Of a stretch of DNA of 64,000 nt, positions 8,286 through 32,172 are shown in pieces (positions within the stretch are counted from its first letter, which is position 1; each line of letters starts with the position of its first letter). This DNA is from a virus. The stretch lies in the IMG/VR virus record IMGVR_UViG_3300023296_000800. One strand, 5' to 3'. The position numbers and the translations under genes are program-made. A model generated the notes under the pieces. That model worked only from the letters and a program-made list of their open reading frames with translations. It was not told the origin of the DNA and made no database searches.

Positions 8286-8758
8286 AGAAGTTTGAGATCA
8301 TACCAACAGAACCACGATGTGGCGATTGTACCGCATGTTGCGAATCAACAGGATTTACAGGTGACTGGAAAAAAATAGACCGATACAACGAAGCAGAAGC
8401 ATCTGGTATAGATTTTGGTCCTTGGAGCACTTGCAATAAACTTTGCAGTACAGGTTGTTCTATTCAAGACACCAAACCCAGAACGTGTACCGATTTCTTT
8501 TGTCATTTCATAGAACACGATTTAGAAGATAAGTTTAGACCCAAAGAGTTTGGGTATATTGCATTTACAAGTCTCGATAAGAACAGTGAAAACATAGAGA
8601 TTATGTCTTTGGACCATACCTTACCTGCGGAAACACAATATAATAACAACAAAAAAATGTTAGATGAGTTAATTGACAAAGTGCGTATAAGTCTAGGCAA
8701 GGAATATGTATATGCTACTCTACACACTAAAAAATCTGGAATCAAACGAATAAGATGA
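8276..8758 (+). CDS. CxxCxxCC (YkgJ-like) Zn/Fe-chelating domain protein
   Basis: CGDCTACC, CNKL...GCSI...KP..C..FFC; TTG start is uncertain. Confidence 0.75.
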   Translation: MGVKKFEIIPTEPRCGDCTACCESTGFTGDWKKIDRYNEAEASGIDFGPWSTCNKLCSTGCSIQDTKPRTCTDFFCHFIEHDLEDKFRPKEFGYIAFTSLDKNSENIEIMSLDHTLPAETQYNNNKKMLDELIDKVRISLGKEYVYATLHTKKSGIKRIR

Positions 8759-10191
8759 AGTTTTTCATATGCGACGATAATACTAAGTTCACCAAGACCG
8801 AGTATAAATCGTTTGGTAAGTGGCACTTCTACTGCGACGACCTAGTTAAAATATATGAAAATTCAGACTTTATAGTATTGTATTGTGGTTATCTGATTCA
8901 AGGAGATATACTAGAAGCGTGTAAGAACTTTAGTTTTGATGACGAAAACGGAAATTTCTTTGCTGTGAAACTGACCAAAGATGCTTACCAGATATCAATA
9001 GATTATTTTCAAAATCATAAGTTGTTTGTCGCAACCAAATACGGAACAGAGATTACTAACTATCTTCCGTACATGACAATCACCTTAAAGGATGTTGTTA
9101 GAAAAACTCTTACATATGACAAGTATGAACGTGAGATAATGCCCAAAGAGTCTGAAACTTTCTATGATCATATCAACTCGTTTGTCCCTCCATATGATTA
9201 TATACAAGACAGCAAAGATGCTCTTGCACAAGAATACTGGGATAACTTCGAGGAATTTGCTGAGTACATACATCAATGTATGGAATCACATGCAGACGTA
9301 ATTAAGAAAAACTATCCTAATAGATTTTGCTCATTAAGTGAAGGGATCGATTCTGCGGTCCAATCACAATATTTTTATGATGATCCGCAATATCTTTATG
9401 ACTTCTATCCATGTGACGCTGGTGCCATTCACAAAAAATATATAAAAATTGCACAAAGTAATTTTACTAATACACATCATGTCACTTTCTATGCAAAAAA
9501 TAACAAAGAAGAATGTTATAAACATCTAGTGGATTCTACTTGTCGCTGGCAAGTTATTATACCTACTTTCAAACAGCTTTCAGACTGTCCAGTAAAACCG
9601 GATATTGTTTTGTATGGAGTGAACGGTGACGAAGTATTCTTGCGAGATTTAATACCTCATTTACTATTGCTATCTTTAAAATATTATGATATACTCGATA
9701 CTACTAGCATGATAGCCCAACTTCGACAAGAGATCGAATCTAAAAAAGGGCATTATGCATCAACGTACTCTTTGCCATCAAAAGAGAACAGTAAAACAAC
9801 AGATACATTTCTTAGAAAGTTTTTAAATGATTGGTTTAAGACAGAGACTAAAGAGAAATGGTATTTATTTAAGAGAAGCCGCGAGGACATAGAAAATGCC
9901 TTATTAATGTACACTACGCCTAAACTATACACACGTGCAATCAGTTGTAACAGTGATATAATGTGTGCATCGTTATACAACGACAGAAGAATATATCACG
10001 AGTTTTTCAAGATGGAAAACCACTTCTTAGAAGGTGATGCCATGGATGCTCCTATCCAAAAATTAATACTAAATAAGTTTGAATACGAGTTTATTACACC
10101 TAGTAAGGATGTTCTTTTTGGGAACTATGATGAACTGTATGCTCACACCTACGGAGCAACTATTGATAATGACTTGGACCAAAACATATAA
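8755..10191 (+). CDS. Asparagine-synthetase-like ATP pyrophosphatase (adenylating enzyme)
   Basis: PP-loop-like SLSEGIDS and VLYGVNGDEVF (cf. LSGEGADELF); lacks the N-terminal catalytic Cys of the glutaminase domain. Confidence 0.6.
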   Translation: MKFFICDDNTKFTKTEYKSFGKWHFYCDDLVKIYENSDFIVLYCGYLIQGDILEACKNFSFDDENGNFFAVKLTKDAYQISIDYFQNHKLFVATKYGTEITNYLPYMTITLKDVVRKTLTYDKYEREIMPKESETFYDHINSFVPPYDYIQDSKDALAQEYWDNFEEFAEYIHQCMESHADVIKKNYPNRFCSLSEGIDSAVQSQYFYDDPQYLYDFYPCDAGAIHKKYIKIAQSNFTNTHHVTFYAKNNKEECYKHLVDSTCRWQVIIPTFKQLSDCPVKPDIVLYGVNGDEVFLRDLIPHLLLLSLKYYDILDTTSMIAQLRQEIESKKGHYASTYSLPSKENSKTTDTFLRKFLNDWFKTETKEKWYLFKRSREDIENALLMYTTPKLYTRAISCNSDIMCASLYNDRRIYHEFFKMENHFLEGDAMDAPIQKLILNKFEYEFITPSKDVLFGNYDELYAHTYGATIDNDLDQNI

Positions 10192-11649: not shown

Positions 11650-11844
11650 ATGAGAGTCGGTGAAGTAACAAGTCCTTATCATCTCTATGTAGCGACTGTG
11701 TTTATTAAACAGCCAGGCTATACGGGAAACATGGATTTTACTGTGTCAGCACAGACACATTTCGAAGCAAGACAATTAATGAAACGTATGTTTAGTATTC
11801 CAGACCACAGAATAGGAAGTTTGCGCCTAGTTAAAACAGGTTAA
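11650..11844 (+). CDS. Small hypothetical protein
   Basis: 64-aa ORF filling the gap between genes in operon orientation. Confidence 0.6.
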   Translation: MRVGEVTSPYHLYVATVFIKQPGYTGNMDFTVSAQTHFEARQLMKRMFSIPDHRIGSLRLVKTG

Positions 11845-12584
11845 GCAGGCTTACTGTATACAAAATATTTTCTATCGTTCGCATCTTGTTTGAACGTATC
11901 TAACAATAACCCAAACTCTTTCGCAAAGTCGTGCGCGATTTCAAAACTCCACTCAAACACTTCTACCCAAGGCCCTTGCTTATGTTGAATGCCTGGATTG
12001 ACTCTAAAGAACATCTTACCACCTTTAGCAAGTAGTTTATTACAGTTTGCTAGTCTGACTCTGATATCTTCAAGTGAGTTAAAGTTGATAGAGCCTAAGG
12101 CTATGATTGCATCAAAGTGTTCGTCAACGTTTGCATACTCTAAGATGTCTACTTGATAGTCTGACATGTTGTTGTAAGGGTCGATGCCGATCAAGTTTGT
12201 AATGCGTTCTTTAAACTGATTGTAACCACAACCTACATCTAGGACTGCTTTAGGGTTTAGTTTGTTTATTTCATCAACTAATGCCCAGCCTGTATAATTA
12301 TACTTCTCTGTCATGGGCTTCCAAATCTCACCAAAAAACATCATAGAATATTTAACATCTAACTGATCTACTATACTTTCGATAGTTCCTTCCCATCTGA
12401 TGGGAGTTTTCAGTCCCATCGTTTCGAGAATATCTTCTTGGAACTTCGCTAACTTGACAGGAGTTATTTTTATTTTTTCTATGTCAGTCTGCTCACACAG
12501 GTTACGACGAACTTCATCATATTTTGGTAAATATAGTGTTTCTTCTAAATTTTTCATTACTAATTTAAAAATTTTACTGTTCAT
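11841..12584 (-). CDS. Class I SAM-dependent methyltransferase
   Basis: VLDVGCGYNQFK motif I, LIGID, FDAIIALGSIN, LLAKGG. Confidence 0.85.
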   Translation of the reverse strand: MNSKIFKLVMKNLEETLYLPKYDEVRRNLCEQTDIEKIKITPVKLAKFQEDILETMGLKTPIRWEGTIESIVDQLDVKYSMMFFGEIWKPMTEKYNYTGWALVDEINKLNPKAVLDVGCGYNQFKERITNLIGIDPYNNMSDYQVDILEYANVDEHFDAIIALGSINFNSLEDIRVRLANCNKLLAKGGKMFFRVNPGIQHKQGPWVEVFEWSFEIAHDFAKEFGLLLDTFKQDANDRKYFVYSKPA

Positions 12585-12613
12585 GGAGTTTTTTCTCTCT
12601 GTATTGATAAAAG

Positions 12614-12646
12614 TATAAATACTTTTGAAATTATAACACTATTTAG
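12614..12646. promoter_or_regulatory. Pair of oppositely oriented late-like promoters: TATAAATA (+, 12614-21) and CTAAATA (-, 12640-46)
   Basis: Both motifs lie in the 87-nt gap between the methyltransferase and tctA, each pointing at one gene. Confidence 0.55.
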
Positions 12647-12671
12647 TAATTACTCAGAGGGCCAAAAATTT

Positions 12672-14120
12672 ATGGAATATTTCCCCTGGCTACTAGCAGG
12701 TACAGCATTCGGATTTATGTTTGGTATAATTCCTGTCGCTGGAGCGGGTATTGGACTGATTAGTATGTTCGGCTTTATCGAAATTTTTCGTCCAGACCCT
12801 TACACTATAGTGGTATTCTCAACAGCACTTGTATGTGCCGCGGCTATCGGTGATAGCTTTGCTAGTGTGGTGATGAACATACCAGGAGCAGGCGGAAGTG
12901 CCGCTACTATGGTAGATGGCTTTCCAATGACACAGAACGGAGAAGCAAGTAGAGCATTAGGTGCCGCTCTTGCTACATCAACAGTAAACGGATTGATCTG
13001 GGGAGGACTAGTATTTGCTTTCTTGCCCTACTATGCATCAGCAATAATGGCGTTCGGTATGCCAGAGATGTTAGCATTCTTACTACTAGCATTTGCGACT
13101 GTATGTTTTGTTAGCAGTGAATACTGGTTCAGAGGAATCATTGCTCTATGCATAGGTGTTACAATAGGACTCATTGGAGAACACCCGATCACAGGTGAAG
13201 CACGATTCACATTAGGTTGGGATTATCTTGGTGCTGGAGTTCAAATGGCTCCTTTACTAGCAGGTGTATTAGCAGTACCAGAACTTGTAATAGCATACAG
13301 GAACAGACACAAGACTAAGATACCTCAGATTAGAAGTGAGTGGTCAGGTATGTGGCAAGGCTTTAAAGATAGTTGGATTCACAAGTGGGACGGACTACGA
13401 GGTGGATTCGTTGGCGCAGTTGTTGGGATAATACCTGGCATAGGTGGCAACATTGCAGACTGGTTAGCATATGCACAAACAGTTGCGATAAACAAAAACG
13501 AAAAGATTCCATTCGGTTCAGGTAATGTCAAAGGAGTCATCGGTACTGAAGGTGCAAACAATGCACAAAAAGCAACAAGTTATGTACCGACTATATTGTT
13601 TGGTATCCCAGGTGCAAACTTTGAAATCATTATCATGTCATTGTTTATGATTGTAGGATTTGAGATGGGTACACCTGAAGTCTTAGAAGATATGACATTC
13701 TTTAAGTATCTGTTTAGCAGTTACATGTGGGCACTGCTGTTAAGTTTTATACTTGGGTTATTCTTCTACAGATATGCAGTCAAAATAACGAATATAGATT
13801 TTAAATATTACTTCTGGCCTATCATTGCATTACTTGTTTGGTCAAGTGTGCAATACACAGGTTACTGGGAAGATTACGCATTCTTTATCATAGCATGTAC
13901 ATTAGGCATGTTTCTTAGAGTGAACAAATTAAGCAGAGCGGCTTTTGTGATAGGGTTTGCATTATCACACCGCATTGAATCTACGAGCGTGGCATACATT
14001 GCACTATATGATACCCTTGATATCTTTACAAGACCAATCAGTGGTTCATTAATGGCTCTTATTATCGTAGCCATAATATACGGTATATTTTTTAACAAAA
14101 CGAGGATAAAATATGTTTAA
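12672..14120 (+). CDS. tctA: Tripartite tricarboxylate transporter large permease subunit
   Basis: Highly hydrophobic 482 aa; NIPGAGGSAATMVDGFPM, IPGIGG and EGANNA signatures of the TctA family. Confidence 0.85.
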   Translation: MEYFPWLLAGTAFGFMFGIIPVAGAGIGLISMFGFIEIFRPDPYTIVVFSTALVCAAAIGDSFASVVMNIPGAGGSAATMVDGFPMTQNGEASRALGAALATSTVNGLIWGGLVFAFLPYYASAIMAFGMPEMLAFLLLAFATVCFVSSEYWFRGIIALCIGVTIGLIGEHPITGEARFTLGWDYLGAGVQMAPLLAGVLAVPELVIAYRNRHKTKIPQIRSEWSGMWQGFKDSWIHKWDGLRGGFVGAVVGIIPGIGGNIADWLAYAQTVAINKNEKIPFGSGNVKGVIGTEGANNAQKATSYVPTILFGIPGANFEIIIMSLFMIVGFEMGTPEVLEDMTFFKYLFSSYMWALLLSFILGLFFYRYAVKITNIDFKYYFWPIIALLVWSSVQYTGYWEDYAFFIIACTLGMFLRVNKLSRAAFVIGFALSHRIESTSVAYIALYDTLDIFTRPISGSLMALIIVAIIYGIFFNKTRIKYV

Positions 14121-14700
14121 AAAAGTAATGTTGGTTGCCTTAGCAACTGTGTTATTGGCTCCGCTAGCAAGTGCAGACAGTGTTCGCTATGGATATCGAT
14201 TAGATAATTCATCTGGTACAGATGGATTTGATCAAAATGCATTTATGATTGATTACATGCATCAAACTAAAATTGAAAACTTTAGAGTCGGGCTTGGTTT
14301 CCGTAGAGTTGAGAGAGATAAAGATAATCGATTAACAAATCGTTATCAACTTAAATTCCAAAATAGAAATATTATGGGAGTTGACGGTCTTCATCTTGGA
14401 TATCAAATCGGAACAAAAGAACGCAGTAAAGCAGAAATGACTGAATATGGGCAAGTTCAACTACAGTATGGTCAAAGATTTAACGATGGTGCATCAAAAG
14501 TTGGTTGGGGAGTTGCATATGCATATAGAGAAGGTATCTTCTCGGGTGATAAATCAACAGACTACTCTCATGGTCCAAGCTTTCAGTTGACTTACAAACA
14601 TAGTTGGTTATGGGGTTCAAGTATTCAATTTGATCATCAAAAAAGAACTGACGGTGAAACACGTAATCGCATAGCATATAGAATACAGAGGAACTTCTGA
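14113..14700 (+). CDS. Putative outer-membrane beta-barrel (porin-like)
   Basis: Signal peptide ending ASA|DS; alternating amphipathic beta pattern; C-terminal Phe (RIQRNF) typical of the OMP beta-signal. Confidence 0.6.
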   Translation: MFKKVMLVALATVLLAPLASADSVRYGYRLDNSSGTDGFDQNAFMIDYMHQTKIENFRVGLGFRRVERDKDNRLTNRYQLKFQNRNIMGVDGLHLGYQIGTKERSKAEMTEYGQVQLQYGQRFNDGASKVGWGVAYAYREGIFSGDKSTDYSHGPSFQLTYKHSWLWGSSIQFDHQKRTDGETRNRIAYRIQRNF

Positions 14701-15755
14701 TGATCAGGCGTTTGTTATTAGTAATATTGCTTTTGGGTATGACTACACATACTTTTGCAGACTATCAATTGGTTGTTCCACAGAAACCAGGTGGTGGCAC
14801 TGACACTTGGGCTAGAATTATCGCACTTGAGTTAGAAAAGACATTGGGTGAAAGAATTATCGTAGTTAATTTTCCAGGACGCAATGATATTGCAGGGTTT
14901 AATAAATTTCACCAAGAATTCAGATTCGACGATAAAACTATTATGGTCAGTCATGGAGGGAATGCAGAAACATATTTATTAGAACCGGTCAAGTACAATT
15001 ATAATGACTACAATCTAATTGCATTGTCTAATCTAACTGTCATTGTTGGTAAACGTAACGATCAGAACGTAGAAGAAAAGGTTAAATTTGCGGCAGGTAG
15101 CGGACAAAATCCAGACAGCATGGCTATCACAATGATGGTGTGCGGACCACAAGATGAAGACACTATGAAAGCATATGAACAATGCTTCAGAGATAAAATC
15201 ATTTATGTGCCGAGTATGGGTGGTGGTGAACGTCGAAAGGCTTATTTGGGAGGAGAACTTAACGTAACACGCGAATCTCCTGCCAGATATAAGAAGATCA
15301 ACTCAGATGCAAATGAAACTTGGTTTACACATGGAGTACTTGATTTAGCGTCAGGAGAAGTTATTGACGACAAAAACAATTTGGGCATGCTGTTTAGTGA
15401 TGTGTATGAACAACGTTGGGGAGAGAAGCCCTCCGGCACGTTCCATGATGCATATTTACTGCTTAGAAACTACAGAGATGTTTTGCAGAAAGCACTCTGG
15501 GTCAATAAAGGTAATCCTAACCAAGCAAAGCTTGAACAAGCAGTTGTGGATATGATTGCTGATCCTGAAAGCAGTGAAGCACTCATTGCTCTTGCAGGGG
15601 ATTATGAATGGATTGTTGGTGAAGCCAACGGCGTAAAAGTATTAGATTTTTTACAGAGTCAAACAACTGAAAAAAATCTAAGAAATTTAGTTTGGTGGAA
15701 CTCGACTCTTTACGGACAAAAGCCCATTTTTAAAGAAGAACTACTAGGAAATTAA
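14700..15755 (+). CDS. tctC: Tripartite tricarboxylate transporter substrate-binding protein (Bug/TctC family)
   Basis: Signal peptide; VVPQKPGGGTD N-terminal signature; IVVNFPG; lies downstream of tctA. Confidence 0.8.
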   Translation: MIRRLLLVILLLGMTTHTFADYQLVVPQKPGGGTDTWARIIALELEKTLGERIIVVNFPGRNDIAGFNKFHQEFRFDDKTIMVSHGGNAETYLLEPVKYNYNDYNLIALSNLTVIVGKRNDQNVEEKVKFAAGSGQNPDSMAITMMVCGPQDEDTMKAYEQCFRDKIIYVPSMGGGERRKAYLGGELNVTRESPARYKKINSDANETWFTHGVLDLASGEVIDDKNNLGMLFSDVYEQRWGEKPSGTFHDAYLLLRNYRDVLQKALWVNKGNPNQAKLEQAVVDMIADPESSEALIALAGDYEWIVGEANGVKVLDFLQSQTTEKNLRNLVWWNSTLYGQKPIFKEELLGN

Positions 15756-15756
15756 T

Positions 15757-16374
15757 ATGAAATATATCTTTGTTGTAGGAGCTCCAGGCTCTAAATGGAG
15801 CAGTGTTGTAAAAAACATTTACTTTAGTCCGTCATTCGACAGGAGCGATTATAGTCTTGATAGAACTTATCACCATGATGCTGACGGCAGAATGCAGTTG
15901 ATGCATCTTGGTGCGTACTATGATCCAGGGATGGAGTTCGGAGAGTGGTTTGCTGATATCGACAAGTATTCTAAAAAAAAATGCGAAGCAGAGTTTGATA
16001 AGCCTTTCTCAGGTGACGGCATACGAATAATTAAGAGCCATGTGCTCGCACATCACACTGAGTTCTTGAAAGAGAATTGGCCAGACTGCTATATCGTGTT
16101 AGTTCACAGAGATGACGATGCATGTTTGGGCTGGTGGGTTAAATGTGGTCAGTTTGACATAACATATCCTCTGTATCACGAATACTACAAGAATTTGAAG
16201 GTCATGGGCAAGCACATTGGTCGTCAAAACAAAGATATTCTCGCATCATGGAAGGAAGATGGCATCGAAGTAGCCACTAACCTAGAGTTAGCTGAGATGT
16301 TAGGTATAGACGCACCTCCAACTGGTACTTACCAAGATTACAATAAGAAAAACATTAAAGTAAAAATAATATGA
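15757..16374 (+). CDS. P-loop/sulfotransferase-like protein
   Basis: N-terminal FVVGAPGSKWSSV resembles a PAPS-binding loop; IIKSH; IVLVHRD. Confidence 0.45.
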   Translation: MKYIFVVGAPGSKWSSVVKNIYFSPSFDRSDYSLDRTYHHDADGRMQLMHLGAYYDPGMEFGEWFADIDKYSKKKCEAEFDKPFSGDGIRIIKSHVLAHHTEFLKENWPDCYIVLVHRDDDACLGWWVKCGQFDITYPLYHEYYKNLKVMGKHIGRQNKDILASWKEDGIEVATNLELAEMLGIDAPPTGTYQDYNKKNIKVKII

Positions 16375-16484
16375 CTATGTTTACCATATGCAAAGTGCAT
16401 TGGAAGCAAATTGTAAGCGTGTCGGTAGTATTACATTTATTAGTACATGAGTTACCGATGTTAATTATATGGTTACTCATATAA
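16371..16484 (+). CDS. 37-aa hydrophobic peptide (absent from the ORF track)
   Basis: ATGA overlap with previous stop; MTMFTICKVHWKQIVSVSVVLHLLVHELPMLIIWLLI. Confidence 0.5.
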   Translation: MTMFTICKVHWKQIVSVSVVLHLLVHELPMLIIWLLI

Positions 16485-16503
16485 TAAAAATTAGGAGAGA
16501 CAC

Positions 16504-17172
16504 ATGACCGAAATTAAATCTAGTTGGGAAGAATTAAAGATTAGAAGCAACTATCACTTTAAAAATGATGTGATGGATTCTCTTTACGATACAGTCGAGC
16601 ATATAGGTGTTGTTACTCCGGTTTGGTCACAAAAAGACCTTGACATTATAATTTCTGGGTCAAACAAAGCCACATGGCGCACCCGTGGTAATCCTGCAAA
16701 AGAATCTAAAGTCAGAGGAGAAGAGGAATTCAAATCAGAAGACTATGACTTGGATGTTACTGGTTACGGCAAAGATTATGTTGTATCCAATCTTAACTGG
16801 GAAGTACCATCTAAGATAGTAGACTTAGCAAAAGCATTTGGTTTAGATGATATGACGATTAGAGCGCATGTTCAATATCCAGGCCAAGTATGGAACTTAC
16901 ATCTGGACAAACTTGAAAAGTGGTGCCCAGAAGATCCAGACAAAGTAGAAAGATACATGATTCAATTAACAGATTGGCAACCAGGTCAGTTCTGGGGTTA
17001 TGGTAACTTTAATTTTGCTCATTGGAAGGCTGGTGACGTTACTACATTTAAATGGAAAGACGTTCCTCATTGCACAGCAAATGCAGGACATCATCTACGA
17101 ATTACGTTGCAAATAACAGGTGTTCGCACAGCAAAGTCTATTGCATTTGTTAATTCTTTAAAAACAAATTAA
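16504..17172 (+). CDS. Fe(II)/2OG dioxygenase-like (AspH-type double-stranded beta helix)
   Basis: LHLD (HxD) ... PHCTANAG (distal His) ... RITLQITG; strong AGGAGA RBS. Confidence 0.6.
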   Translation: MTEIKSSWEELKIRSNYHFKNDVMDSLYDTVEHIGVVTPVWSQKDLDIIISGSNKATWRTRGNPAKESKVRGEEEFKSEDYDLDVTGYGKDYVVSNLNWEVPSKIVDLAKAFGLDDMTIRAHVQYPGQVWNLHLDKLEKWCPEDPDKVERYMIQLTDWQPGQFWGYGNFNFAHWKAGDVTTFKWKDVPHCTANAGHHLRITLQITGVRTAKSIAFVNSLKTN

Positions 17173-17405
17173 CGATTGCGTTTATCTACATCATCACAGA
17201 TAGATTTTGCTAAACTACTCCCTGTAGTTTTGAATAAAAAGGGTAAAAAAGCATGAATGATTACGGCTAATCCAGCAATAATCATCTGTGCTCCGTATGA
17301 TAAGGCACACCAAAGATGATGTAGGTATGATTCTCCGAGTGATCGAGGGTGTTCAGTAAATGTGTGTCTTAGTCTACTGAAAAATGTGGTTATTCTGTTC
17401 GCCAT
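17169..17405 (-). CDS. DUF6356-like small membrane protein
   Basis: FTEHPRSLGESYLHHL...IHAFLPFLF..TGS pattern; start moved to ATG 17405. Confidence 0.65.
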   Translation of the reverse strand: MANRITTFFSRLRHTFTEHPRSLGESYLHHLWCALSYGAQMIIAGLAVIIHAFLPFLFKTTGSSLAKSICDDVDKRNR

Positions 17406-17913
17406 ATATTTTAATATATTTACCGGCAACCATATCGGCAGCCGCCTCTATTGGTGATCCAGGATAACTGCTACCTGGAGTGATTAAATTCTTTTCGCCT
17501 TGTCTAATATGAACTAATTCATGGAATACTGTTCGCATAATATCAATTAAGTTTCTGTTACCATAGACCCAAATTTCATCAGAGCCTACTTCATGTCTAC
17601 CTGTATGGTGACCTTCTTGTGCTTCTTCTGTGTCGTAACTAATTACGATCTTGGGCATGTTTTCAATCTTAAGAAGTTTGCCCATCCAGTCTGCGCCTTT
17701 CTGTGCTTCGTCTTCTATGTTAAGACCATCGTCAAACATTTCATCAGAGGCGGTTAACTGCTCTCTAGCCTTATGTGCTTGTTTAGCGGCATCTTGGGCA
17801 TTGCGATAAATTTTGCCCTTTTCGTCTACATCATATTGATCACTTTTGATCTTAGGAAGTCTATTCTCTAAGTCTTTTAGCGGGGATTCTGTTATAAAGT
17901 CTATTGCTCTCAT
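17374..17913 (-). CDS. Zincin-like (HExxH) metallopeptidase-domain protein
   Basis: RTVFHELVHIRQ plus downstream E..AD; N-terminus MRAIDFITES. Confidence 0.65.
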   Translation of the reverse strand: MRAIDFITESPLKDLENRLPKIKSDQYDVDEKGKIYRNAQDAAKQAHKAREQLTASDEMFDDGLNIEDEAQKGADWMGKLLKIENMPKIVISYDTEEAQEGHHTGRHEVGSDEIWVYGNRNLIDIMRTVFHELVHIRQGEKNLITPGSSYPGSPIEAAADMVAGKYIKIYGEQNNHIFQ

Positions 17914-17955: not shown

Positions 17956-17984
17956 TTGACTCGACACGCATTAAATATTATAAT
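17956..17984 (+). promoter_or_regulatory. Sigma70-like promoter
   Basis: TTGACT-17nt-TATAAT. Confidence 0.75.
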
Positions 17985-18015
17985 AGATAAAAGAATTTAC
18001 TATCATGAGGGCAGA

Positions 18016-18237
18016 ATGATTATTCCTAATAGCAAGGAAGCAGAATTGATTATACAAGAACTTCGATACGAAATGAATAACCCAGGCAATGATGGCTGGA
18101 CACGTTCAGCCATCAAAAAACGTTTATGGGATATTAAAATGCGAGTAGACCGAGCATTAAAAGACGCTCCTAAGTATACAGGTGATCCAAACTATGAAGA
18201 CCTATATCTGATAGAAAAAATAAAAGGGACAGTATGA
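18016..18237 (+). CDS. Hypothetical protein
   Basis: The track start (17956) overlaps the -35 box; ATG 18016 has a GAGGG RBS. Confidence 0.65.
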   Translation: MIIPNSKEAELIIQELRYEMNNPGNDGWTRSAIKKRLWDIKMRVDRALKDAPKYTGDPNYEDLYLIEKIKGTV

Positions 18238-19031
18238 AGTTAGGCATTATTGGTAAGGGCTTCGTAGGTTCAGCAGTCAGTCACGGCTTTGATGTGGATG
18301 TTGAACAGTTTATTGTTGATCCCAAGTTCAATTTTAACACGATACCAGGTTTAGTATCTTATGTAGCAGACATTATATTTGTCTGTGTGCCTACACCACA
18401 ACACGCGACACAATTAGATGTTGATACGCAAATGGCTCGCGAAGTCTTAGCAGAGTTAAATGAGTTGGAATACAAAGGTGTCGTGGTTGTTAAATCAACG
18501 ATCACCCCGAATCATTTAAAGCAGTTTAAAATACTTTATACCAATTTACGAATCGTGTACAATCCTGAATTCTTAACAGAAGCAAATAGTAACCAAGAGT
18601 TTATTAACCCACACATGCAAATACTAGGTGGGGAGTTACAAGATTGTATCGAAGTAGAGCAAGCATACATTAATCATAGTAAAGTTAAGATTGTGCCTAC
18701 ATTTAAGACAGATTTAACAACTGCTAGTCTTATTAAGTATTCAATCAACAGTTGGTTAGCAACTAAAGTAACATTCTTCAATGAGTTATATGATTTACAT
18801 GATCGAAGCCAGGCCAAAACATCATGGGAGCAATTCACCGACATGTTGAAATGTGATCCAAGAGTAGGCAATAGTCACATGCAAGTCCCAGGCCCAGATG
18901 GTTACTTTGGATTTGGAGGACATTGTTTACCTAAAGATACTAACGCATTGTTATATTATGCTAAACTAGAAGGGGTCTCTCTTCCAGTGCTAGAAAAAAT
19001 TATCGAACAAAACGATAATGATAGGCCGTAA
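18234..19031 (+). CDS. UDP-glucose/GDP-mannose 6-dehydrogenase family (short form)
   Basis: GKGFVG Rossmann motif, YNPEFL, KY..N.WLATKV.FFNE, catalytic GFGGHCLPKD; C-terminal domain absent. Confidence 0.9.
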   Translation: MKLGIIGKGFVGSAVSHGFDVDVEQFIVDPKFNFNTIPGLVSYVADIIFVCVPTPQHATQLDVDTQMAREVLAELNELEYKGVVVVKSTITPNHLKQFKILYTNLRIVYNPEFLTEANSNQEFINPHMQILGGELQDCIEVEQAYINHSKVKIVPTFKTDLTTASLIKYSINSWLATKVTFFNELYDLHDRSQAKTSWEQFTDMLKCDPRVGNSHMQVPGPDGYFGFGGHCLPKDTNALLYYAKLEGVSLPVLEKIIEQNDNDRP

Positions 19032-19126: not shown

Positions 19127-19387
19127 ATGGCAGTAAAATACTTTAATCCAGAACAGGTTAACAAACTTAAACAATTAATAAATGAGGGCATGGGTGTCAT
19201 GCAAGAAGTCGAAACTCTTAACGGAGGACTCGCCGATACTGTAAAATCAATCGCAGAAGAATTAGAGATCAAGTCTTCTATTCTAAAGAAAGCAATCAGA
19301 ATTGCTCACAAAAGCAAACTAACTGATACGAACGCTGACCATGAGCAACTAAATGACATTTTGGAGACTGTTGGCAGAACTATTTAA
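19127..19387 (+). CDS. Small helical protein, possibly DsbA-like dsDNA-binding
   Basis: 86 aa; ...IAEELEIKSSILKKAIRIAHK; AGGAG RBS; just upstream of replication genes. Confidence 0.5.
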   Translation: MAVKYFNPEQVNKLKQLINEGMGVMQEVETLNGGLADTVKSIAEELEIKSSILKKAIRIAHKSKLTDTNADHEQLNDILETVGRTI

Positions 19388-20034
19388 TGCCGAGACTAGT
19401 CACTTTTGGGTGTTCATTTACATATGGTCACAGTTTACCTGATTGCTATATAGGAAATGGGTGCCCGAGTGACTCTCCTAGTAAGTATGCTTGGCCCAGT
19501 CTATTAGCAGAAAAGTTAGGTTATGATTGTTTAAATTTGTCTGCTTCTGGATCTGGTAATTATCAAATTTTACTAGATATCTTACGAACAGACTTTAAAC
19601 AAGATGATGTAGTGGTAATAGGATATTCATATTTTGATAGATATGAATATTACCAACTGATTAATAGAGATGGTGAAGGTCACCAGTTATCAAAAAAAAC
19701 TAAAGATATTCAACATAGAAAAGAAATCAATAAAAGTATGCTTACCACTTTACTCGGTGATACAAATATCAAAAATAACAATCAGAGATATTGGAATAAT
19801 TGGTTATCAATACAACATGCAGAAATGTTATTGCACTCTAAAAATATACAGAACTATTCTTTTCTTAATGTACCGGAAATCGCGCAAGAAAACAAACCTG
19901 ATTTGATTGAATTAAATAATTTTTTTGATGATATACAGCTAACTTTTAAGGATTATGCTTTGGACAAAGAACACCCAGGAATGGAGACTCATCGGTTGCA
20001 AGCAGAACAACTTTATAGTATGATAGCACTATGA
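19387..20034 (+). CDS. SGNH/GDSL hydrolase-like protein
   Basis: FGCSFTYG block I, NLSASGSGN, C-terminal D..HPG. Confidence 0.7.
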   Translation: MPRLVTFGCSFTYGHSLPDCYIGNGCPSDSPSKYAWPSLLAEKLGYDCLNLSASGSGNYQILLDILRTDFKQDDVVVIGYSYFDRYEYYQLINRDGEGHQLSKKTKDIQHRKEINKSMLTTLLGDTNIKNNNQRYWNNWLSIQHAEMLLHSKNIQNYSFLNVPEIAQENKPDLIELNNFFDDIQLTFKDYALDKEHPGMETHRLQAEQLYSMIAL

Positions 20035-31938: not shown

Positions 31939-32172
31939 ATGCCTGGTCCAACTAATGTCAGTGAACTTGTGAGCCAAATCCGCAAGATGAATGTAGAAAT
32001 GACTTCACCTTACAACGATGGTTACACGGCATGGGGTATCAAGCAAGATTTGTTTATGGTTAAATTCTTTTTAGATAAAGTTATAACAGATGCGCCTACA
32101 TTCGGTGAGCAAGAAAAGAATTGGTTGAAAGAGCAAGAACAAACAAAAATGATGGGGGTTTTAAAAAAATGA
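31939..32172 (+). CDS. Hypothetical protein, distantly similar to 18016..18237
   Basis: 77 aa; EM.SPYNDGYTAWGIKQDL resembles EMNNPGNDGWTRSAIKKRL in the 18 kb gene. Confidence 0.7.
   Translation: MPGPTNVSELVSQIRKMNVEMTSPYNDGYTAWGIKQDLFMVKFFLDKVITDAPTFGEQEKNWLKEQEQTKMMGVLKK

Follow-up and report, generated by a model that had tools for sequence, protein, structure and literature searches.

The cassette described here, at positions 11841-17172 of a 64,000-nucleotide stretch of viral DNA (IMG/VR record IMGVR_UViG_3300023296_000800; the whole stretch is called the window below), combines a permease and a solute-binding protein of the tripartite tricarboxylate transporter (TTT) type with a small outer-membrane beta-barrel and with genes for linked enzymes. 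We consider it likely, though well short of certain, that the cassette encodes a phage-specific importer which carries an anionic solute across the whole envelope without a TctB subunit, the solute probably being processed by the linked enzymes. This solute probably carries a carboxylate. An earlier note on this DNA had proposed that the phage brings along a route of its own through outer membrane, periplasm and inner membrane, with tailoring enzymes attached to it. The route finds support in the fold and basic lumen of the barrel, and in the observation that the barrel is met only within or beside TctA/TctC modules; its link to the enzymes is supported by the methyltransferase, sulfotransferase-like and oxygenase genes, which accompany the transporter in phages whose backbones are unrelated.

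All seven open reading frames (ORFs) named in the earlier note were found in place. The transporter genes lie on the plus strand and begin with tctA (12672..14120), which codes for a 482-aa TctA permease (PF01970), in TTT transporters the larger of the membrane subunits. It is followed by the genes for the barrel (14113..14700, 195 aa; signal peptide, AlphaFold2 (AF2) model and fold matches), for a divergent TctC/Bug-type periplasmic solute-binding protein of 351 aa (14700..15755; signal peptide and family profile), for a sulfotransferase-like P-loop protein of 205 aa (15757..16374; weak PF13469 match and Atlas neighbours) and, beyond a hydrophobic 37-aa ORF (16371..16484), for a 222-aa protein with a 2-oxoglutarate (2OG)/Fe(II)-oxygenase fold (16504..17172; HxD...H plus Arg in a double-stranded beta-helix (DSBH) model). 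A class I S-adenosylmethionine (SAM)-dependent methyltransferase of 247 aa, proposed earlier as the divergent member of the set, is indeed encoded on the minus strand (11841..12584) and scores above the PF08241 cut-off. The tctA and barrel genes overlap by 8 nt (ATGTTTAA) and the barrel and tctC genes by 1 nt (TGATG), while the sulfotransferase-like gene starts one base past the tctC stop (TAATATG). These overlaps and abutments bear out the translational coupling claimed for the plus-strand genes.

The claim that each side has its own late-like promoter fared less well. The divergent intergenic region (12585..12671) holds a single copy of TATAAATA upstream of tctA (12614-12621, plus strand), and CTAAATA lies upstream of the methyltransferase gene on the minus strand, near 12640. 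In the window TATAAATA shows no enrichment (3 copies observed against 6.5 expected), and TAAATA reaches no more than roughly 2-fold enrichment, in intergenic DNA that is rich in AT. Since the motifs are not enriched, a promoter role for them is unproven and the claim has no statistical support.

The permease can be assigned firmly. Its PF01970 match spans profile positions 3-423 of 423 with an E value of 1e-84, and a crude scan finds at least nine hydrophobic segments; the large TctA permease of a TTT system, with about 12 transmembrane (TM) segments in this family, is therefore present. A motif G-Hy3-G-Hy3-G-Hy2-P-G-Hy-G has been described in TM1 and TM7 of TctA (PMC5812351). It is matched exactly in TM7 (residues 244-258: G244, G248, G252, P255-G256-I-G258) and nearly so in TM1 (G10, G14, G18, P21-V-A-G24).

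The binding protein is more divergent. Its signal peptide ends TFA/DY, and its Pfam TctC match has an E value of 0.016 (15.2 bits against a cut-off of 27). A profile of its family (alignment A3) matches BugE (2dvz), BugD (2f5x) and TctC (6hke) with E values of about 1e-5, the alignment covering the N-terminal ~120 residues together with a collinear short match at the C-terminus. This bears out the earlier reading of the gene as tctC, with its product a divergent protein of the TctC/Bug type. The domain-1 signature of Bug proteins is published as P-F-x-A-G-G-x-x-D (PMC5812351); the phage protein has P27-Q-K-P-G31-G32-G-T-D35 at residues 27-35, and invariant cysteines at C148 and C162. The Bug motif and the disulfide are both in keeping with that TTT review (PMC5812351). 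The periplasmic component of a TTT system, with signal peptide and domain-1 signature, is hence found beside the permease. Its family is large: clustering at 90% identity leaves at least 1261 clusters, almost all ~350 aa long and labelled 'hypothetical', and a few of these clusters carry PF03401.

Structure prediction of TctA together with mature TctC gave ipSAE values of 0.59-0.61 in three concordant runs, with contact agreement of at least 88% and partner pLDDT of at least 82, while the best of three controls scored 0.00. Among solved complexes 58 of 80 pass the ipSAE mark, among mismatches 2 of 110; passing scores of 0.60 or less, however, are seen for just 7 of the 80 solved complexes yet for both passing mismatches, so that the values fall partly in a less reliable range. 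We take the modelled complex as weak support for a predicted docking of TctC onto TctA.

The third TTT component, the small TctB subunit with 4-5 TM segments, was not found. No small multi-TM ORF is present in the window, and a search of five related viral records, three of them rated by CheckV as 99% complete or more, gave no PF07331 match even at E values up to 1. The statement of the earlier note that there is no tctB is thus upheld. TctB is poorly conserved (PMC5812351), so its absence is strongly indicated rather than absolute, and a very divergent analogue is conceivable. A candidate, DUF6552 (PF20189, E = 3e-13), is a membrane protein of 74-86 aa encoded just upstream of tctA in three lineages (L013:9041-9265, L016:9741-10001 and L024:3301-3540) and absent from the window; it could be a functional substitute for TctB.

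The hydrophobic 37-aa ORF was considered as a TctB surrogate. We followed the cassette through 31 fetched loci (numbered with L) with genes labelled by hidden Markov models, representing about 16 distinct lineages, among which L010 and L017 are the nearest relatives with cassettes 90% identical to that of the window. The ORF exists, as the earlier note had it, but it lies inside a ~130-bp insertion that is missing in L010 and L017, and in L001 and L018 as well. Since this segment is absent from 90%-identical relatives we do not count the ORF as a gene, and as it is not conserved it is ruled out as a TctB substitute. The stop of the sulfotransferase-like gene overlaps the start of the oxygenase gene in L010 and L017; in the window the insertion provides the AGGAGA ribosome-binding site of the oxygenase gene.

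The outer-membrane component had been described as a beta-barrel with a signal peptide and a terminal Phe, and this description stood. Its signal peptide ends ASA/D and its C-terminus is RNF, with Phe as the last residue. An AF2 model from a nine-sequence alignment shows a signal helix followed by 10 strands (pLDDT 86.6, pTM 0.76), so that the structure prediction which the earlier note had called for at 14113..14700 returned a closed outer-membrane barrel. A Foldseek search of this model against the PDB matched outer-membrane barrels only (OmpU, KdgM, NalP, OmpG, NanC), besides the designed 10-strand barrel TMB10 with TM-scores of 0.52/0.68. Closer still is a 169-aa 'porin family protein' cluster in the AlphaFold database (TM-scores 0.77/0.88, root mean square deviation (rmsd) 2.2), and several virus-only clusters of 180-196 aa reach TM-scores of ~0.8. 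The protein thus unites the features of an outer-membrane barrel, namely a Sec signal peptide, a closed antiparallel barrel, an even number of strands and a C-terminal aromatic residue. When alternate strand residues were allotted to lumen and lipid face by hydrophobicity, the predicted lumen was found to contain 17 Arg/Lys against 3 Asp/Glu, together with 11 Gly; the mature protein has a pI of 9.6. Members of its subfamily, itself included, have 17-23 Arg/Lys against 3-8 Asp/Glu, and a remote member of the L004 type has 12 against 5. This basic, glycine-rich predicted lumen is an indirect sign that the barrel may conduct solute.

Profile searching of 1.84 billion proteins yielded 23 representative clusters for the barrel family, all 175-196 aa in length. 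Contexts were fetched for seven distant members, and wherever flanking genes could be seen (8/8 contexts) the barrel lay within or beside a phage TTT module. Three of them (P0129, P0130, P0132) have a TctA gene on one side and on the other a gene for a 352-aa TctC-type protein, stops and starts overlapping in most cases; P0137 has a sulfotransferase-like gene on one side and tctC on the other, P0140 adjoins a TctC-like gene and P0146 a 2OG oxygenase gene. The order tctA-barrel-tctC is shared by the window, L001, L010, L023, L024-26 and the P0130 contig, and L027 has sulfotransferase-barrel-tctC. The barrel of L004, on a 383-kb contig, lies one gene upstream of tctA and at first seemed unrelated; because P0140 and P0146 share its type it is placed as a remote member of the same family. 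Barrels of this L004 type are also found by a TctC-like gene in L028 and by a 2OG oxygenase gene in L030. In the contexts retrieved, the association of the barrel with TTT modules is exclusive.

These contexts bear on the proposal that the proteins have no role in import at all, the barrel and the binding protein altering the host envelope (superinfection exclusion or receptor masking), or TctA exporting the product of the enzymes. Phages often encode small outer-membrane proteins, many virus-only barrel clusters share the fold seen here, and biosynthetic clusters usually carry exporters. Against such roles, the barrel gene is coupled between tctA and tctC and keeps to the TTT module in every context seen, TctC retains its ligand-clamping signature, and dependence on a solute-binding protein marks a transporter as an importer (PMC5812351). 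We regard this proposal as quite improbable.

We then turn to the enzymes. In the methyltransferase about 100 N-terminal residues are unassigned and precede a Rossmann domain with a VLDVGCG motif. PF08241 is matched at 22.7 bits against a cut-off of 21.2, with PF13489 and PF13649 under their cut-offs, and the Atlas places the protein with virus-only methyltransferase clusters (0.99). The above-threshold match together with the glycine-rich motif I (VLDVGCG) identifies it as a class I SAM methyltransferase.

The sulfotransferase-like protein carries an N-terminal GAPGSKWS motif/loop and matches PF13469 with an E value of 0.005. Four of the six members of its family do so (best E = 0.001), all below the cut-off, and its Atlas feature score to viral clusters with PF13469/PF00685 is 0.95; a sequence search of the PDB with the family profile gave no match. 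Profile-profile comparison of this family with a second P-loop family (A9) and with the family of a 289-aa protein (A8) was not significant in either case. Judged from sequence, the evidence that the 205-aa protein is sulfotransferase-like is weak but consistent. We also observed, on a contig from a metagenome-assembled genome (MAG; L020:4621-8698, minus strand), three paralogues of ~220-230 aa with an N-terminal P-loop-like 'GSYGS' directly downstream of tctC, which suggests a local expansion of sulfotransferase-like tailoring genes.

The HxD..H dioxygenase of the earlier note is confirmed by motif and fold. All 10 sequences of alignment A2 keep H133-x-D135, H189 and R199, and the AF2 model (pLDDT 80.3) shows a DSBH with the iron and 2OG residues on or just past the expected strands. 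The protein thus has the DSBH, the HxD...H triad and the basic residue (R199) of the 2OG/Fe(II) oxygenase superfamily, and its Atlas neighbours are virus-only clusters. In VIA-align it is nearest to proline 3-hydroxylase (1e5r; Z 13.6, rmsd 2.9 over 146 aa), with PHD2, prolyl 4-hydroxylase (P4H) and SnoN at Z 11-13 and bacterial and viral P4H among the best neighbours; Foldseek gives an E value of 2e-6 to P4H.

This ranking tells against a sulfur route, in which an organosulfonate or sulfate ester would be imported and the 2OG oxygenase would free sulfite or sulfate from it in the manner of TauD and AtsK, which the sulfotransferase-like proteins would then use for sulfation. Among known TTT systems SlcHFG serves sulfolactate (PMC5812351), related modules hold several sulfotransferase-like genes, and an APS-kinase-like gene is found in L011 (PF01583, 44 bits) and marginally in L004. 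The oxygenase profile does match AtsK, weakly (E = 0.12); the match is not backed by the fold ranking, in which no TauD-type enzyme (TauD/AtsK) occurs among the best 50 structural entries listed, the fold neighbours being proline and prolyl hydroxylases. In the five related viral records APS kinase was not found at E values up to 0.001, and ATP sulfurylase gave one marginal match (E = 0.0098), below the cut-off. Moreover, salt-lake and marine waters are rich in sulfate. A sulfur route thus seems to us improbable.

Across lineages the gene set is more stable than its order. TctA and TctC genes are adjacent in all 15 lineages in which both are visible. The methyltransferase occurs in 11 of the 16 lineages and adjoins TctA/TctC in each of these 11, the sulfotransferase-like family occurs in 9 and the oxygenase family of the window in 7, and one or other of the three accompanies TctA/TctC in nearly all. 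Orders vary (tctA-tctC-sulfotransferase-oxygenase, tctA-oxygenase-tctC, sulfotransferase-methyltransferase-tctA-tctC and others), as do the flanks, which include DNA polymerase, PhoH, ClpP-like and structural genes. Because the set persists through shuffled orders and different flanks, it behaves as one mobile functional unit. The earlier note had looked for a gene order conserved in relatives; the order shuffles, whereas the gene set is kept. Some loci carry further genes for sulfotransferase-like P-loop proteins, an APS-kinase-like kinase (L011), radical SAM proteins and SGNH proteins.

This persistence also has to be set against a simpler explanation, that the transporter is a generic auxiliary metabolic gene (AMG) for scavenging, importing a common carboxylate (2OG, citrate, a C4-dicarboxylate or an acidic amino acid) for replication or for the oxygenases, while the sulfotransferase-like protein and the methyltransferase act elsewhere, on surface glycans or DNA. 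The characterised TTT substrates are indeed common carboxylates (PMC5812351), tctA has already been listed as a viral AMG (PMC4164917), and many loci have the oxygenase gene directly against tctA or tctC or overlapping one of them. On the other hand, an enzyme set that tracks the transporter through ~15 lineages, in varied backbones and orders, is unexpected for unrelated neighbours, and the TctC family is very divergent from characterised carboxylate binders. Hosts, besides, produce 2OG and citrate themselves. We hold scavenging to be unlikely, at about one chance among several.

For an importer that feeds the linked enzymes, the following course may be envisaged during infection of a diderm host. 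The 10-stranded, Arg/Lys-lined barrel would insert in the outer membrane and admit a small anionic solute, which the Sec-exported TctC-like protein would capture in the periplasm, the Bug 'pincer' loop clamping its carboxylate. TctC would hand the solute to TctA, which would act as an ion-gradient-driven permease without TctB. In the cytoplasm the solute would most probably be a substrate of the 2OG/Fe(II) oxygenase, for hydroxylation, of the sulfotransferase-like protein and of the SAM methyltransferase, and these enzymes would convert it to a phage-specific product. We infer that transport takes place and is inward, that the barrel acts as a channel, that TctA and TctC suffice for transport and that the enzymes act on what is imported. 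A more specific proposal, which we put forward only tentatively and think rather less than an even chance, is that a two-component, TctB-independent TTT importer and a dedicated outer-membrane anion channel feed a phage pathway of hydroxylation, sulfation and methylation, whose product is phage-specific, for example a donor for hypermodification of DNA or surface glycans.

Several points weigh against the importer and its link to the enzymes. Ten-stranded barrels can be non-conducting, as OmpT and OpcA are, and the barrel is missing from 9 of the 16 lineages; being present in only ~7/16, it is best seen as an optional third layer. TctC is under the Pfam threshold, a good alignment with Bug proteins of solved structure is confined to its N-terminal ~120 residues, and the score of its complex with TctA is classed as weak support. 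Function without TctB is an assumption, since the analogous Q subunit of the ATP-independent, tripartite periplasmic transporters (TRAP) is essential (PMC5812351). The enzymes could also act on another target, such as DNA, glycan or protein, their genes being no more than island neighbours of the transporter genes.

A further point concerns expression. In a marine metatranscriptome (run X24), contigs ~90% identical to the window cover the methyltransferase, tctA, barrel, tctC and sulfotransferase-like genes and span the tctA/barrel and barrel/tctC junctions (window 14066-14828), some parts of the stretch being without any cover. These RNA-library contigs are possibly carried-over DNA, and transcription is therefore not demonstrated by them; that they span the junctions is a hint, not proof, that the operon of a relative is transcribed as one unit.

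The window itself is jumbo phage DNA, as judged from the relatives of its DNA polymerase. This is a T4-type family B polymerase (phrog_262, E = 6e-199) whose closest relatives are those of the jumbo phages Sinorhizobium phage Phosso (48.9% identity) and Agrobacterium phage Atu_ph07 (45.7%), with Serratia BF and Erwinia pEa_SNUABM phages at 43%. DNA of the cassette is near-complete in 7 salt-lake metagenome runs, from which it may stem, and in 8 more salt-lake runs at least half of the sampled cassette words are present; these runs probably represent one sampling campaign. TctA of the window is 52-94% identical to that of 18 IMG/VR loci. None of 50,697 isolate-phage records holds a close homologue: a nucleotide search gave no match, and tblastn of TctA gave only matches of 31% identity or less, on unrelated records. 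A scan of genome contigs returned only four MAG contigs. One of them, L019, has phage-type genes, and two (L021 and L022) look cellular by eye. On L022 (1190-3186 and 7995-14720), a high-GC contig ('Marine bacterium B5-7'), we observed TctA, TctC, sulfotransferase-like and methyltransferase genes together; genes nearby resemble, by eye, YcaO/TfuA, 2OG oxygenase and further P-loop protein genes. The module may thus be present in cells also.

The genes around the cassette in the window were considered as well. Directly after the oxygenase gene lies a minus-strand gene for an 86-aa DUF6356 membrane protein (17169-17429; PF19883, E = 1.3e-22), which shares 56 nt with the start of the minus-strand gene that comes next. 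The close relatives L010 and L017 lack it; it is therefore taken as a recent insertion and ruled out as a cassette partner. An AsnB-like PP-loop gene (8755-10191) is likewise not supported as part of the module, none being found within 10 kb of tctA in the fetched loci. The next minus-strand gene (17374-17913) codes for 179 aa that include an HELVH (HExxH) motif and give weak metallopeptidase-toxin-like Pfam matches; it is kept beside the cassette in L001 and L010, with its strand reversed in L001. A 93-aa ORF follows at 17956-18237 and has a paralogue 14 kb downstream (31939-32172; hmmsearch E = 4e-24). On the plus strand, 18234-19031 encodes a 265-aa UDP-glucose/GDP-mannose dehydrogenase-like protein (phrog_9148) with NAD-binding and central domains and no C-terminal domain, and 19387-20034 an SGNH/GDSL-like hydrolase whose N-terminus bears a motif of the GCSFTYG type. 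Genes for such hydrolases directly adjoin TctA/TctC modules in two unrelated loci (L019:5372-6115 and L027:1948-2577), and the hydrolase may belong to the extended enzyme set.

Among known systems the nearest are those of Salmonella enterica (TctCBA) and Bordetella pertussis (BctCBA), both of the TTT family (TC 2.A.80), which share with the phage cassette the TctA Pfam family, a signal-peptide-bearing Bug/TctC protein with the 'pincer' signature, and adjacent co-oriented genes. The cassette differs from them in having no TctB, in placing tctA first, in carrying an outer-membrane barrel between the two genes and in its attached enzymes; its TctA is ~25% identical to that of Salmonella, and its TctC is larger (331 aa when mature) and under the Pfam threshold. 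Archaeal TctA homologues (Winnen 2003, reviewed in PMC5812351) similarly have no TctB partner, but they are also without TctC, whereas the phage module always has a cognate TctC and the host is a diderm bacterium. The acidic-sugar channels NanC and KdgM, which work with the SiaPQM TRAP transporter or NanT, are likewise small monomeric outer-membrane barrels with a basic lumen that feed the uptake of acidic solutes, in the SiaPQM case through a binding-protein-dependent system like that of the phage. These channels, however, have 12 strands and no sequence kinship with the phage barrel, serve an inner-membrane system of the TRAP or major facilitator type, are not encoded in a single overlapping operon, and are cellular. 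A genetic coupling of a binding-protein-dependent importer to a 2OG/Fe(II) oxygenase is also seen in tauABCD and atsK-atsRBC; those importers are ATP-binding cassette transporters, and the phage oxygenase is nearer to proline/prolyl hydroxylases than to the TauD family. A TctA-family gene has been reported on viral DNA before, as the tctA 'AMG' that Roux et al. (2014, PMC4164917) reported for viral contigs of SUP05, but this was a domain match only, without TctC, barrel, enzyme set or TctB analysis.

Our literature search found only this bare domain match on SUP05 viral contigs (PMC4164917, PMC6359870) and no paper on the module itself, and a survey of jumbo phages (Iyer et al. 2021, PMC7824862) makes no mention of TctA, tricarboxylate, sulfotransferase, solute-binding or transporter. 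The judgement of the earlier note that a complete uptake route is unusual for a phage therefore holds for isolates and for the literature, but not for uncultured aquatic phages, given the abundance of TctC-type clusters in them. What is new here is the dedicated barrel and its exclusive tie to the TTT module.

Few uptake systems are as poorly understood as the TTT transporters, and our literature search found no report of a solved structure for their membrane part. A large natural clade that runs on TctA and TctC alone would make the need for TctB directly testable. A virus that supplies components for all three layers of the envelope, together with a linked oxygenase, sulfotransferase-like protein and methyltransferase, implies the import and chemical remodelling of an external compound during infection, a role that exceeds the usual picture of AMGs as boosters of host pathways. 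If the two-component importer is real, a complete 'import and tailor' pathway exists as a mobile unit in many uncultured aquatic phages. Since the module is abundant, with its binding protein alone forming at least 1261 clusters, knowing the ligand would give a role to phage genes that are now called 'hypothetical' and number in the thousands in viromes from marine, lake and saline waters.

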